Source: a virus
IMG/VR virus record: IMGVR_UViG_3300035698_012504
Coordinates: 58,694 to 122,693 of that record
Strand: one strand, 5' to 3'
DNA: 64,000 nt
The position numbers and the translations under genes were made by a program. This document shows positions 8,939-56,193 of this stretch, in pieces. The first letter of the stretch is position 1. Each line of letters begins with the position of its first letter. Under the pieces are notes generated by a model that saw only the letters and a list, made by a program, of their open reading frames with translations, did not search any database and was not told where the DNA came from.

Positions 8939-8972
8939 TTGAGGACAAATATATAAAAGGAGTATTTGTCCT
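8939..8972 (+). promoter_or_regulatory. promoter-like motif TTGAGGACAAAtaTATAAA overlapping a 10-bp inverted repeat that brackets the RBS
   Basis: One of five copies of TGAGGACAAAyTwTAAA. AGGACAAATA (8942-8951) pairs with TATTTGTCCT (8963-8972) directly before the ATG at 8973. Confidence 0.45.
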
Positions 8973-9740
8973 ATGATTTTATGTAATTATGGTTGTGGGA
9001 ATGAAGGTAAATATCAATTAAAAAATGGTAAATGGTGTTGTTCAAAACACTGGTCTTCTTGCCCAGAAATAAAGAAAAAAACTAGTAGAATAACTGAAAA
9101 TAGATTCAAAATATGTGAAAATTGTAATAAAAAAATATTAAAAGCAAATCATAAAAAACATTTAAATGCATGTAAACGAGAGAACTTCTGTTTAGAGTGT
9201 GGTGAAAAACTAACATCAAAAGATAATAGAGCAAAGTTTTGTTCTCATAAATGTGCTGGAATATATAATAATAAAAATTCTGAAGGACTTAAATCATGCC
9301 GAAGAGGACCGATAAGTAAAAATAAAATACATTCTGATGAAGATGGAAATTATATATGTCAACAATGTGGAATAAAATTTAAGGGGCGACCTCGAAAGTT
9401 TTGTTCTCATAAATGCGCTGGATATAATAAATATATAAAAAATGTAGAAAAATGGATATCTGGTGAAACTAATGGTATGTATGGTAAAGTTCAAACCGCT
9501 ACATTTGTAAGAAATTATATCATAGAAAGAGATGGAAAAAAATGTTCTATGTGTAGTTGGGATAAAATCCATCAAATCACTGGTAAAGTTCCTATTCATT
9601 TAGATCATATAGATGGTAACTGGAAAAATAATAAGCCAGATAATCTTAGGATGTTATGTCCAAATTGTCATTCTCTAACTGAAAATTATGGGATATTAAA
9701 TAATGGGAATGGAAGACCGGACAATAGAAAAAGATATTAG
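8973..9740 (+). CDS. HNH homing endonuclease with Zn-finger repeats
   Basis: Repeated CxxC motifs (FCSHKCAG x2) and a C-terminal HNH box (HLDHIDGNW...NLRMLCPNCHSLTENYG). Confidence 0.8.
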   Translation: MILCNYGCGNEGKYQLKNGKWCCSKHWSSCPEIKKKTSRITENRFKICENCNKKILKANHKKHLNACKRENFCLECGEKLTSKDNRAKFCSHKCAGIYNNKNSEGLKSCRRGPISKNKIHSDEDGNYICQQCGIKFKGRPRKFCSHKCAGYNKYIKNVEKWISGETNGMYGKVQTATFVRNYIIERDGKKCSMCSWDKIHQITGKVPIHLDHIDGNWKNNKPDNLRMLCPNCHSLTENYGILNNGNGRPDNRKRY

Positions 9741-9756
9741 AAAGGAAACAACATTT

Positions 9757-10395
9757 ATGATTAATTTCACTTGTCATAATTGTGGACATTATCTTAATAT
9801 TCCAGATCAATATGCTAATACGACTGGAAAATGTAGACACTGCAATCATGAAATTGAAGTACCTGATCTTACATGGACTGCTAAATTTGATGTATTTAGG
9901 AAGAATATAGGTAGAATAGGATGTGGAGGATTGATTTTAATATTTAGTATTTTTGTAACGACATGTATAATGGTTGATGTTAATAATACATCTCAAATAG
10001 GACAACCACCAACATCCACTACACCAGCACCAATACCAGCAGAATTACCTAAAAAAATAGTCAAGCCACCATCAATGATAGATGACATGTCATCTAAACC
10101 AAAACATACTAAATCGGTTACACCACAGTACGAACCATCTAAAAGAAATAACTCATCATTCAATCCACAATCATATGTCAATAAACTTAAAAAAGGAATG
10201 ACATATAATCAAGTAGTAAGAATAATGGGTGTACATGGTAAGAAAGGTATGGAAATGAATTGGGGGGATGGTGATATTCATCGTACAATGAACTGGGAGT
10301 GGACTGGGAATATGTTTAGAGGAGAAAGTAGCGGGTTTATAAGCATTCAATTCGTAAATGATCGAGTTGATGGTTGGACATTTTTTAGTTTATAG
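9757..10395 (+). CDS. membrane protein with N-terminal zinc ribbon
   Basis: CHNCGH...CRHCNH zinc ribbon, one TM helix, Pro/Thr linker, C-terminal globular domain. Confidence 0.4.
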   Translation: MINFTCHNCGHYLNIPDQYANTTGKCRHCNHEIEVPDLTWTAKFDVFRKNIGRIGCGGLILIFSIFVTTCIMVDVNNTSQIGQPPTSTTPAPIPAELPKKIVKPPSMIDDMSSKPKHTKSVTPQYEPSKRNNSSFNPQSYVNKLKKGMTYNQVVRIMGVHGKKGMEMNWGDGDIHRTMNWEWTGNMFRGESSGFISIQFVNDRVDGWTFFSL

Positions 10396-10476
10396 CGATA
10401 CAAGGAGAAAGATGGGTAAGAACATAAGAGGAGGAATTGGTGTCAGTGGTAATATATTTTTTACAGCTGACACCCA

Positions 10477-10986
10477 TTGAATTTTTCGCATAAAAATATT
10501 ATAAAGTATTGTAATCGTCCATTTAAATCCAAAGAAGAGATGGATGAAACTATGGTAAAGAATTGGAACAGTGTTGTATCATCTGGAGATACTGTATATC
10601 ATCTTGGAGATTTTAGCTTTTATAATTCTACAATTAAAACAAATCAAATGCTTCTTAGGTTAAATGGTAAAATTATATTTTGTCAAGGAAATCACGATAA
10701 AGATATTAATCAAATATTTCCAAGATTGCCTCAGATAATTATTTTAAGACATGAAGGTAGAAGGTTAATACTATGTCATTATGCTATGAGAGTATGGGAT
10801 AATTCTCATCGTAACAGTTGGCATCTATATGGACACAGTCATGGTACTCTTCCATCCATTGGAAAGAGTCATGACGTTGGAGTTGATAGTAATAAGTTTA
10901 CACCTATTAGTTTTGATCAACTAAAAGATATTATGAGTAAGAAACCCGATAATGGGAATTGTCTACCCGACTTTAAGGGAAAATGA
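10477..10986 (+). CDS. metallophosphoesterase; N-terminus lies in another frame (10412-10480)
   Basis: HKNIIKYCNRPF, HLGDFSF and GNHD motifs. Upstream ORF MGKNIRGGIGVSGNIFFTADTH* supplies the missing FTADTH metal-binding motif in the -1 frame. Confidence 0.55.
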   Translation: MNFSHKNIIKYCNRPFKSKEEMDETMVKNWNSVVSSGDTVYHLGDFSFYNSTIKTNQMLLRLNGKIIFCQGNHDKDINQIFPRLPQIIILRHEGRRLILCHYAMRVWDNSHRNSWHLYGHSHGTLPSIGKSHDVGVDSNKFTPISFDQLKDIMSKKPDNGNCLPDFKGK

Positions 10987-10994
10987 AACAAAAA

Positions 10995-11026
10995 AAGAAA
11001 TGTGTTGTGAGCACATTTCTTTTTGT
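10995..11026 (+). terminator. rho-independent terminator-like hairpin
   Basis: GAAATGTG-TTGTGAG-CACATTTC followed by TTTTTG. Confidence 0.55.
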
Positions 11027-11062
11027 ATCAGCTAGATAAGACTGTTAATAACTTCTTGCGCA

Positions 11063-54793: not shown

Positions 54794-54845
54794 ATGATGG
54801 ATGAGACAACATAACCTCAAAGAAAACGAAAGGAACGTGTTCACT

Positions 54846-55049
54846 ATGGCACATTCAACTTTAAGCAAGTCCGATCTAAGATCCCCAGGCGCAAAACCAG
54901 AGCGCCCAGGAGTGTATCGTGAAGTCGGCCCACTCGGAGGTACTGTCAAGAAGGCAGTAAAAACTACGATCTCCGAAGGTACCCCTCAGTTCCCCCCGAC
55001 AAGGGAAAAAGGTCGCAGATGGATCTGGGTAGCATCTACGCCCAAATAA
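54846..55049 (+). CDS. small GC-rich ORF
   Basis: 67 aa after an AAAGGAA RBS; composition is atypical for this genome. Confidence 0.3.
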   Translation: MAHSTLSKSDLRSPGAKPERPGVYREVGPLGGTVKKAVKTTISEGTPQFPPTREKGRRWIWVASTPK

Positions 55050-55063
55050 TCTTTTGCGGAACG

Positions 55064-55100
55064 GGAGGGGGATGAACCCCCTCCCAGCCTATTTTTTTTT
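55064..55100 (+). terminator. strong rho-independent terminator
   Basis: GGGAGGGGG-atgaa-CCCCCTCCC stem followed by a T-run (ATTTTTTTTTATTTTTT). Confidence 0.75.
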
Positions 55101-55120
55101 ATTTTTTAAAAGGAAGTAAC

Positions 55121-56158
55121 ATGAAAATAAATATAGCGAATCACCTAATAACTAGAAGGTGTAATTTAAGTTGTGAGTATTGTAAAATAGCTACTAGCCA
55201 AACAGATCTGTTAAGGCCAGTAGAGTATCCTAAAAATGGATTTTATAATAAAAATGAAAAGAGTGGCGAGTGGTGGATAAAATTAATAGATAGATTACAT
55301 AAACATAATAGTGAAATGTTTCATGTAATATATGGTGGAGAACCATTACTAAGATTAGAAACTCTGACAAAAATAATAGAGTTCATGCATAAGAAGGACA
55401 TCAATTATACTATCGTTAGTAATTGTACAGGCTCAGAGGTAAGGGACAATCTACAATCTCTTATCAAGTCAGTAGGGAAACTTAAGGGATTCTCTGCATC
55501 AGTTGATCCTTATTTCACAGAGGAAGAAGATGAAAGTGAATCAACAGATGAAAAATATAAAACATTTTGCGGATATAGTACCCTCAAGTGGCTGATAAGA
55601 AATGATTTAGTAGAGGATCCAGTTGCAGAAATAGTATGTGATAATAAAACAATTTATAATTTAGAGAGAACCGTAAAGATTCTAAGTGATGCTGAGATAT
55701 GGTCATCCATTAATGTATTAGATATTGCTAAAAATAATTATTATGATTTTAGTACGATATTATCTGAAGAATATGCAGTACATCAGTCTGAAGAAGTAAG
55801 GGCTATATTTGATAGACTTATATCAAACGACGATCTTATGATACATATGAAAGATTATTTGCTTAATGAACTATACAATTCTCTTCCAACCAATGTAGAT
55901 TGTGGGATAGAAAAAGATATACATAACATTACAATAGATAGTGATGGGAAGTTAAGACTGTGTCTAAGGATAAGAGGCATGATGACACAACAACACAATG
56001 CTCTTGAACTTATAAATAAAAATGGTTATTTTGCTGACAAATTTGAAGATATATATGAGTCTATAAAGGATGATAAGTTTACACTATGTAAGAAGTGTGC
56101 CTGGGCCTGTCCATTGATGTCTAAATTAAATGATAATTATAAAGTAATTAATCATTAA
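55121..56158 (+). CDS. radical SAM enzyme with C-terminal auxiliary Cys cluster
   Basis: CNLSCEYC (CxxxCxxC) at the N-terminus; C-terminal CKKCAWAC (SPASM/twitch-like). Confidence 0.65.
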   Translation: MKINIANHLITRRCNLSCEYCKIATSQTDLLRPVEYPKNGFYNKNEKSGEWWIKLIDRLHKHNSEMFHVIYGGEPLLRLETLTKIIEFMHKKDINYTIVSNCTGSEVRDNLQSLIKSVGKLKGFSASVDPYFTEEEDESESTDEKYKTFCGYSTLKWLIRNDLVEDPVAEIVCDNKTIYNLERTVKILSDAEIWSSINVLDIAKNNYYDFSTILSEEYAVHQSEEVRAIFDRLISNDDLMIHMKDYLLNELYNSLPTNVDCGIEKDIHNITIDSDGKLRLCLRIRGMMTQQHNALELINKNGYFADKFEDIYESIKDDKFTLCKKCAWACPLMSKLNDNYKVINH

Positions 56159-56173
56159 ATATTGTAGATTATT

Positions 56174-56193
56174 TTGAGGACAAATTTTAAAGG
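56174..56193 (+). promoter_or_regulatory. promoter-like motif TTGAGGACAAATTTTAAAGG
   Basis: Fifth copy of the conserved motif, about 40 nt before the ATG at 56230. Confidence 0.45.

Follow-up and report, generated by a model that had tools for sequence, protein, structure and literature searches.

The window examined here is a 64,000-nt stretch of the virus record IMGVR_UViG_3300035698_012504, and all work on it was performed in silico. A motif of the form A-GGACAAA-Y-W-N-T-AAA recurs in this window, and its sequence pattern indicates that it is very probably a promoter for a phage-encoded multisubunit RNA polymerase (RNAP). By analogy with Bacillus phage AR9, the motif is probably a clade-specific middle/late promoter of the non-virion RNAP (nvRNAP), homologous to the AR9 late promoter. 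The DNA comes from a jumbo phage that has not been cultivated and that encodes split multisubunit RNAPs of the phiKZ/AR9 type. Phages of this type possess two multisubunit RNAPs, of which the virion RNAP (vRNAP) is responsible for transcribing early genes and the nvRNAP transcribes late genes (PMC5312081, PMC7598289). We infer the timing of the motif and the polymerase reading it because its targets include genes of virion function, a separate early-type motif is present, a sigma-like subunit is encoded in the window, and the sequence is akin to that of AR9 late promoters. The original prediction for this DNA had proposed a phage-specific promoter, possibly for the multisubunit RNAP, and the split RNAP subunits encoded here, together with the strand-specific, intergenic and conserved occurrence of the motif, agree with that proposal.

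Distribution of the motif in the window

Scanning of the window detected exact matches to TGAGGACAAAYTWTAAA at 20614-20630 on the minus strand and at 38772-38788, 43066-43082 and 56175-56191 on the plus strand. Four matches were reached in none of 100 shuffled sequences, for which the mean was 0.25. Together with TGAGGACAAATATATAAA at 8940-8957, they make up the five near-identical copies reported before, and the weaker variant noticed ahead of a tRNA pair was recovered as TGCGGACAAATAATCAAA at 25466-25483. Intergenic DNA accounts for 6.6% of the window, yet it holds all six copies, each co-oriented with the gene downstream; this orientation also holds for the single confident minus-strand gene (19999-20568). 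A relaxed pattern (AGGACAAA with at most one mismatch, followed by Y, N2-4 and AAA) returned the six known copies and one chance match inside a gene. For AGGACAAA-Y-N2-4-AAA with an exact core, a first-order Markov model gave expectations of 0.14 (plus strand) and 0.01 (minus strand) per window, about 0.15 in total. The copies are not remnants of duplicated regions, because their similarity stops sharply at the motif borders. The GGACAAA part was invariant, while the -10-like part varied at key positions (TTTAAA, TGTAAA, TACAAA and TTCAAA). T-rich tracts were also seen upstream of the motif. The TTGAGG element described originally was not present at 43066, where the copy reads ATGAGG, but its distance from TATAAA, 6-7 nt, is indeed incompatible with sigma-70.

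The genes behind the copies were of several kinds. The copy at 8940-8957 (plus strand), which belongs to a 15-nt core class with one extra spacer base, follows a tRNA-Gly gene and lies 15 nt from the ATG of an HNH endonuclease gene (8973-9740). The copy at 20614-20630 (minus strand, TGAGGACAAACTATAAA) lies 45 nt from the ATG (20568) of gene 19999-20568, and the N-terminus of this gene product matches the helix-turn-helix region of HNH-endonuclease families. The variant at 25466-25483 (plus strand) stops 2 nt short of the tRNA pair 25485-25640, and two HNH genes (25667 and 26356) come after this pair. The copy at 38772-38788 (plus strand, TGAGGACAAACTTTAAA) is located 46 nt past the stop codon of an NAD-ligase gene. 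A terminator-like hairpin (38812-38834) with a T-run begins 23 nt after this copy and the HNH gene starts only at 39022, so the claim that it lies close to a gene start was not borne out; a short transcript or an attenuated leader could be the outcome. The distance of 20-65 nt claimed for every copy fitted the genes at 20568, 43148 (65 nt) and 56230, and not the gene at 8973.

The remaining two copies precede genes of virion function. The copy at 43066-43082 (plus strand, TGAGGACAAACTATAAA) was correctly described as standing right after a terminator: it begins 22 nt past the stem (43027-43043) and 12 nt past the T-run of an intrinsic terminator at 43027-43053 (plus strand; AGGCTCGTAAAGAGCCT and then TTTATTTTTTT), which lies directly upstream. 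An 11-bp 5' stem-loop is found downstream of this copy, which heads a co-directional gene block of about 12 kb (43148-55049). The block contains a VgrG/gp5-like central spike (baseplate hub) gene at 50435-51757 on the plus strand (phrog_9992 and phrog_430; VgrG E 1.2e-4; gp5 beta-helix matches), which marks it as virion/late. The copy at 56175-56191 (plus strand, TGAGGACAAATTTTAAA) lies 38 nt before a gene for a 127-aa protein (56230) that heads the vRNAP beta' cluster. Its further downstream target is the gene for the vRNAP beta' N-terminal subunit (beta'N) at 57502-58437 (plus strand; phrog_2986/2987), the ortholog of AR9 gp145. The product matched gp145, the vRNAP beta'N of AR9, at 5e-31, and gave no match to g270, the beta'N of the AR9 nvRNAP. 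The beta' sequence continues at 60796-64000 (plus strand), with the catalytic motif ADFDGD near 61040, and runs off the window end.

The hairpin behind the 38772 copy is part of an 88-nt direct repeat (10987-11074 and 38802-38889, 82% identity) consisting of an A-run, a hairpin and a T-run, the shape of a bidirectional terminator. The repeat continues with a leader of about 40 nt that carries sigma-70-like hexamers (TTGTAT, 17 nt, TAATAA) and then an ATG. One copy leads to an HNH paralog at 11063, the other to a 44-codon open reading frame ahead of the HNH gene at 39022.

Conservation of the motif in related phages

The relatives comprised 80 metagenomic loci from beta'N homologs plus three others, and the phage of the window itself was present in several samples (L012-L014 and L099-L102). 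In 780 kb of relatives, GGACAAA-N1-2-W-N-N-AAA had 33 occurrences, all of them on the gene strand, and 31 of these were in loci whose beta'N was at least 44% identical to that of the window. The core A-GGACAAA-Y-W-N-T-AAA recurred in about 30 related metagenomic phages. When near-duplicate loci were removed, AGGACAAA-Y-N2-4-AAA was found 20 times on the gene strand and not at all on the other strand of the close relatives (expected 0.70 and 0.17). Genome-wide occurrences without a bias to intergenic, gene-upstream sites had been named beforehand as an argument against a promoter; the strand counts in relatives and the intergenic position of the six window copies are the opposite of that. An unbiased k-mer count placed AGGACAAA at the top of the 8-mers enriched in gene-upstream windows (11-fold, 18 loci). 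Conservation extended to positions outside the search pattern, namely the A before GG and the pyrimidine after AAA (25 of 26 copies each).

The setting of the motif was conserved as well. Strong hairpins with T-runs precede 11 of 26 copies by 10-35 nt. Most copies in relatives lie 13-45 nt ahead of a start codon led by a Shine-Dalgarno sequence (SD), and the overall distance from motif to ATG is 13-65 nt; in several copies the SD begins 0-2 nt past the motif, with a minimum motif-to-ATG distance of 13-15 nt. The motif occupies orthologous positions before the 43148-family gene (window and L019), before the 56230-family gene (window, L015, L022, L023 and L049) and directly before beta'N (L018, L028 and L038); copies precede the vRNAP beta' cluster in the window and at least eight relatives. 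The proteins at these orthologous positions are just 30-54% identical, with the motif kept in place even at 30-40%, and the flanking intergenic sequence is not conserved. An M48 peptidase gene is also among the genes preceded by the motif in relatives, and in L031 a tRNA-Met lies 10 nt downstream of it. Because the motif also precedes tRNA genes, in L031 and behind the window variant, a translation signal is excluded.

No other conserved element was present in the motif-bearing intergenic regions. Scanning of IMG/VR with the exact motif returned 11 single-copy contigs, mostly chance matches, and a literature search for GGACAAA yielded unrelated primer sequences only. In L103 (9908-10000 of the 245-kb contig Ga0453758_0000007; 49% beta'N identity), a terminator is followed by TGGACAAATTTTTAGAGG before beta'N; GGACAAA is retained there and the 3' TAAA is replaced, a drift of the 3' half within the clade. 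Taken together, strand bias, intergenic siting, conservation, terminators and orthologous placement are, at the level of sequence, the signature of a promoter, and an RNA-processing site or a remnant of an endonuclease cassette is unlikely.

Kinship with AR9 late promoters

The late promoters of AR9 have the form 5'-AACA-N6-T-A/G(+1), and it is the template strand that the nvRNAP holoenzyme with gp226 reads in them (PMC5312081, PMC7598289, PMC9209446); position -11 must be deoxyuridine in the template strand, and recognition also works when the DNA is single-stranded (PMC7598289, PMC9209446). An alignment of 84 AR9 late promoters gave AACA-w-w-N-w-A-w-T-A, in which AACA is invariant, -7/-6 are A/T, -1 is T and +1 is A. 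The mapped late promoter of AR9 g145 consists of a terminator, AACAaattatTA(+1) / gttAACAaattatTA(+1) and then a 22-nt untranslated region (UTR).

A comparison with the early and late motifs of related phages, as originally suggested, linked the window motif to AACA-N6-TA through the distant relatives. In these, a T-run followed by AGAACAAAwTATAAA was the top non-homopolymer gene-upstream word (95 on the plus strand versus 10 on the minus strand); examples of AGAACAAAwTATAAAt in the far-tier loci L051-L096 are those at 9493 in L056, 9497 in L059 and 9499 in L074. The window form AGGACAAAyTwTAAA differs from it mainly by one base, the second G in place of A, which results in the series AACA in AR9, AGAACAAA in distant relatives and AGGACAAA in the window clade. 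The changed base aligns with AR9 position -11 and was G in 26 of 26 copies. The AACA of AR9 (-11 to -8, template UUGU) is thus kept by distant relatives inside AGAACAAA, while the window and close relatives carry GACA, retaining ACA. The 15-nt class (e.g. the 8940 copy, GACA-AATATA-TA) fits T(-1)A/G(+1) placed 6 nt after AACA. In the 14-nt class, TA is one base closer, or AA stands at -1/+1; for AR9 itself, 17 promoters with variant spacing have been reported (PMC5312081).

Besides the ACA core, the A/T-rich spacer of 5-6 nt and, in copies such as that at 8940, the T-A at the presumed start, the window motif shares with AR9 late promoters the layout of terminator, promoter, 15-45-nt UTR and SD, and the placement before orthologous vRNAP beta'N, homing-endonuclease genes and a tRNA. 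In AR9, all vRNAP subunit genes belong to the late class, and the homing-endonuclease genes g146, g147 and g188 and a tRNA have late promoters too. The siting of the motif before the vRNAP cluster and the spike block, with short UTRs, corresponds to that of late promoters, the temporal class being taken from AR9. Differences also exist. About 13 positions are near-invariant in the window block versus about 6 in AR9, which makes the conserved block roughly double the length; it has G where AR9 has the -11 A; the spacer of most copies is one base shorter; and the copy density in the window is lower.

The presumed start of transcription is one of the A residues at the 3' end of the motif. We infer initiation within or at its 3' AAA because the SD lies 0-2 nt past the motif and the tRNA 2 nt past the variant. 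Such a start at the 3' end resembles that of AR9 late promoters, unlike AR9 early promoters, which start 6 nt downstream of their conserved block (PMC5312081). Promoters of the single-subunit RNAPs of T7 and SP6 have a similar shape, one contiguous block of about 20 nt with the start at its 3' end. A T7/SP6-like promoter was considered and dropped. The resemblance is superficial (12/18 positions of the SP6 promoter, by eye), the phage encodes RNAPs of the multisubunit kind, the motif grades into the AR9 late promoter, and a scan of window proteins revealed no gene for a single-subunit RNAP among those covered.

The sigma-like subunit gene and a candidate early motif

A candidate reader of the motif is encoded at 53174-54793 (plus strand). 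The 539-aa product is a predicted homolog of AR9 gp226 and phiKZ gp68, the sigma-like specificity subunit of the nvRNAP, and lies within a conserved family of about 480 aa. Profile and single-sequence searches against PDB sequences returned nothing for this protein, and it was identified by fold comparison only. Its AlphaFold model had a pLDDT of 86.6, and BLASTP and hhalign showed that it is collinear with the sigma2-like and finger region of gp226 (ITDRFMWDMIK versus YSDVVIWTYLK). On the strength of the model, the window encodes a specificity subunit of the gp226/gp68 family. The sigma-like proteins of distant relatives are 23-29% identical to this one, and in the sigma2-like segment (RSS-I versus RYN-L beside the TDRxMW helix) the residues do not cleanly separate the motif types.

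A second motif, AT-rich, was detected about 110 nt before an 86-aa gene and the sigma-like gene: TATATATATTAAAT at 52774-52787 (plus strand), a candidate early promoter of the virion RNAP, with a second copy at 4919-4932 of the window. AR9 g226 is likewise preceded by an annotated early promoter. The core ATATATATTAA agrees at 10/11 positions with the early core of AR9, AAATATATATTAT-N6-G(+1) (PMC5312081), and occurred in relatives 39 times on the plus strand versus 5 times on the minus strand, compared with 2-13 for control AT-rich 11-mers. It was found in close and distant relatives, while GGACAAA was limited to the close ones. The AT-rich motif probably marks the early promoters of the clade.

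Its clade form is yTATATATATTAAAT, and distant relatives have CTATATATATTAAT-N4-TGAA. Sites were seen in L015 (5273 and 16295), L016 (4553), L019 (6556), L103 (4411, 6465 and 17561), L056 and L074; minus-strand copies precede minus-strand genes, and a hairpin often follows. In three intergenic regions of the window (40540-40600, 41320-41360 and 52810-52850) a hairpin is followed by (G/T)ATATATAA(G/A). The ATATATAA after the hairpins at 40574 and 41343 was considered as a second element, and this combination may be a signal of its own or else an element of the early type in degenerate form.

A hairpin enclosing the ribosome-binding site of the HNH gene at 8973

The 8940 copy is combined with an RNA hairpin. 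As had been noted, an exact 10-bp inverted repeat on the plus strand, AGGACAAATA at 8942-8951 and TATTTGTCCT at 8963-8972, ends at the ATG at 8973 and encloses the ribosome-binding site (RBS). Folding of 8942-8972 gave -15.3 kcal/mol (z = -4.1) and a stem of 10-11 bp, in which the promoter core forms the 5' arm, the SD AAGGAG (8957-8962) lies inside the 9-nt loop and the ATG follows the stem. The hairpin would form only in transcripts that read through from the upstream tRNA. Those starting at the 8940 promoter, within the loop, would leave the RBS exposed and be translatable, whereas in read-through RNAs the RBS would be masked and the gene silent.

RBS-sequestering hairpins with a late promoter inside are known for I-TevI, I-TevII, I-TevIII and segB of T4 and for mobE of Aeh1 (PMC2988022). 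The predicted translation effect at the 8940 copy fits this control: the SD and start codon of the HNH gene belong to a stable hairpin whose 5' arm is upstream of the presumed start, so the gene's own transcripts would lack that arm. As with segB of T4, the gene adjoins a tRNA gene. The differences are that the promoter core itself is the 5' arm here, that the proposed reader is a phage nvRNAP versus host RNAP plus gp55 in T4, and that the design was found in one of the six window copies only. The core pairs with a downstream inverted repeat in three copies, at 8942-8972 and 20594-20628 of the window and at 6905-6935 of L016. In L016 the repeat is a similar one of 10 bp that does not cover the SD, and the repeat at the 20614 copy was not significant by folding.

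Proposed mechanism and alternative explanations

Following the AR9 analogy, the injected virion RNAP would first transcribe early genes from the AT-rich promoter TATATATATTAAAT. The gp226-like subunit (53174-54793) would be among the early products and join the nvRNAP core. The resulting holoenzyme would then recognize A-GGACAAA-Y-W-N-T-AAA and start at a 3' A residue. The units driven in this way would be the virion-RNAP genes, the structural block with the spike gene, several homing-endonuclease genes and some tRNAs.

Several observations weigh against a late nvRNAP promoter. For AR9, phiKZ and phiR1-37, it is the early motif that bioinformatics can find (PMC7598289), a precedent that would lead one to class a long, strongly conserved motif as early. 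For late promoters, six copies in 64 kb is a low density; the 9.2 kb ahead of the window had no motif copies, and AR9 has about 118 late promoters in 251 kb. The base aligned with the essential -11 A of AR9 is G, and in the 14-nt class, to which most copies belong, ACA and TA stand one base closer together than in AR9. A terminator-like hairpin lies in the path of transcription from the 38772 copy, and there is no motif between the radical-SAM gene at 55121 and the terminator ahead of it. No genes for nvRNAP core subunits were seen in the window, and some homing-endonuclease genes of AR9 (g190 and g265) use early promoters. As for the G, the sigma-like subunit may have been re-specified, the -11 pocket that takes template deoxyuridine (dU) in AR9 now taking template C (non-template G), an idea we regard as tentative and rather doubtful.

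The reading that competes best, although it is unlikely, is that the motif is an early promoter of the injected virion RNAP, as in AR9, phiKZ and phiR1-37. It has in common with the early promoters of phiKZ-like jumbo phages that it is specific to the phage, strongly conserved, recognizable from sequence alone and placed upstream of operons at intervals of several kb. According to the literature, the early class is the one with a detectable conserved motif in all RNAP-encoding jumbo phages, and late promoters escape prediction (PMC7598289); the strong conservation and about one copy per 10 kb resemble the 41 early promoters of AR9, and early promoters stand before the AR9 homing-endonuclease genes named above. 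However, early promoters carry an AT-rich block of about 10-13 nt, which the window motif lacks (its invariant part is GGAC) and TATATATATTAAAT in the same genomes has; it is this latter motif that matches the AR9 early core and is common to close and distant relatives. The window motif precedes vRNAP and spike genes, which are late in AR9, and a start about 6 nt downstream would, judging from the spacing, cut into the adjoining SD or the tRNA 2 nt past the variant.

Slightly less probable still is that the motif acts as an operator for a transcription factor, or in RNA as a processing or stability signal in 5' UTRs. It is a strand-specific element near gene starts, in three copies the core can pair with its inverted repeat further downstream, and the binding of a factor had been raised in the original prediction, of which the promoter part was supported by the data and the factor part was not. 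Against this, strong terminators stand shortly upstream of many copies; at such sites transcription needs a new promoter, and a signal acting in RNA would seldom be transcribed. The abutting SD in several copies leaves no space for a separate downstream promoter, and the regions hold no other conserved element. The motif also precedes tRNAs, is asymmetric, unlike a typical dimeric operator, and grades through AGAACAAA into the mapped AR9 late promoter.

We give little credence to the motif as part of mobile homing-endonuclease cassettes, be it their end, their target site or a copied paralogous 5' region. Four of the six window copies do adjoin HNH or HNH-like genes (8973; 20568 on the minus strand; 25667 with 26356; 39022). 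The window is rich in HNH endonuclease genes, which are paralogs (repeat D1), and the 88-nt repeat (D3) accompanies two of them. But the sharp end of similarity at the motif borders does not suit a copied cassette, and the HNH paralog at 11063 has no motif. The other two window copies, like most of those in relatives, stand at orthologous positions ahead of genes that encode no endonuclease (RNAP beta'N, the 127-aa family, the 43148 family, M48 peptidase and tRNAs). Free-standing endonuclease genes with phage late promoters are known in T4 (PMC2988022) and AR9, which explains the association.

A promoter for host RNAP with sigma-70 or a phage-encoded sigma factor is equally hard to sustain: the 3' TATAAA resembles a -10 hexamer and T-rich tracts lie upstream, but the gap to TTGAGG is 6-7 nt versus 16-18 nt for sigma-70, the supposed -10 varies where GGACAAA does not, sigma-70-like sites are below shuffle expectation, no sigma-70-family gene was seen among the proteins scanned, and phages related to this group do not depend on host RNAP for transcription (PMC5312081, PMC7598289).

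Other features of the window

With a G+C content of about 34%, the window carries almost all of its genes on a single strand, and 11-12 tRNA genes are scattered over it. The cultured phages closest to it by tblastn were AR9/PBS1, phiR1-37, Listeria LPJP1 and S6-type jumbo phages of Staphylococcus, at about 30% identity. Against phages, neither megablast with 10 kb of the window nor tblastn with three protein products of the 43148-55049 block gave a match, and a search of viral contigs for loci related to two window proteins found no relatives. Between 38000 and 57000, 70 sigma-70-like promoter matches were counted versus 89.4 +/- 8.4 expected from shuffles, while terminator-like sites were enriched (16 versus 7.4 expected). 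Few sigma-70-like sites and many terminators are consistent with a transcription programme that is independent of host RNAP and still uses intrinsic terminators.

Rfam scanning of the window found tRNAs only, and no intron or riboswitch family. One tRNA at 36446-36516 was found by Rfam and missed by ARAGORN, and the ARAGORN tRNA at 25485-25563 has the unusual anticodon ATA (labelled Tyr). The 3' end of a tRNA-Leu (19966-20042) is overlapped by the opposite-strand endonuclease-like gene 19999-20568. A RecA/UvsX-like ATPase gene (1139-3424) is apparently split by a LAGLIDADG intein (weak Pfam marks, identical gene of L100), and the beta' gene carries an intein/LAGLIDADG insertion at 62200-64000. 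Selfish elements have colonised the region heavily: besides the two intein-type insertions, it carries at least six genes of the HNH, GIY-YIG or T5orf172 type.

The putative late block begins with tandem pairs of paralogous genes (43148-43948 with 44023-44553, and 45979-46197 with 46202 onward; repeats D5-D8), and the 43148 product ends in a Gly/Ala/Lys-rich tail. Within the block, 47892-49544 encodes a 550-aa protein with several EF-hand calcium-binding motifs. Gene 30648-33392, in a stretch of higher G+C (about 41-42%), encodes a 914-aa protein with the shoulder domain of Major Vault Protein (E 8e-28) as well as vault repeats, which is unusual for a phage. A 5'(3')-deoxyribonucleotidase of the NT5C type, like AR9 g151, is encoded at 4331-4915. 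In phages of the AR9 group, thymine is replaced by uracil. The NT5C-type gene is a hint of dU-containing DNA, which bears on how promoters are read.

Implications

That jumbo-phage RNAPs use phage-specific promoters is already known. New here are a long, predictable late-type consensus common to a large uncultivated clade, the natural change from A to G at the position that is dU-specific in AR9, and the recognition, in one and the same window, of the putative cognate gp226-like gene together with the candidate early motif. To our knowledge, mapped counterparts exist only in AR9 and phiKZ and are very short. If the sigma-like subunit has indeed been re-specified to take template C, self would be discriminated from host by a long consensus (about 24 bits by our own estimate) instead of by dU-DNA. 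Paired with gp226 homologs whose 2.1bis-helix regions differ, the series AACA, AGAACAAA and AGGACAAA would then be a co-variation set from which DNA recognition by a non-canonical sigma family that reads the template strand could be decoded. In this respect, the one-base change beside a conserved gp226-like subunit would be a natural experiment on template-strand sigma-like specificity. A late-type consensus that is long and easily scored, together with an AR9-like early motif, would make the transcription programme readable from metagenomic contigs, including early and late units, terminators and the control of homing-endonuclease genes, and may offer orthogonal promoter and polymerase parts for synthetic biology.

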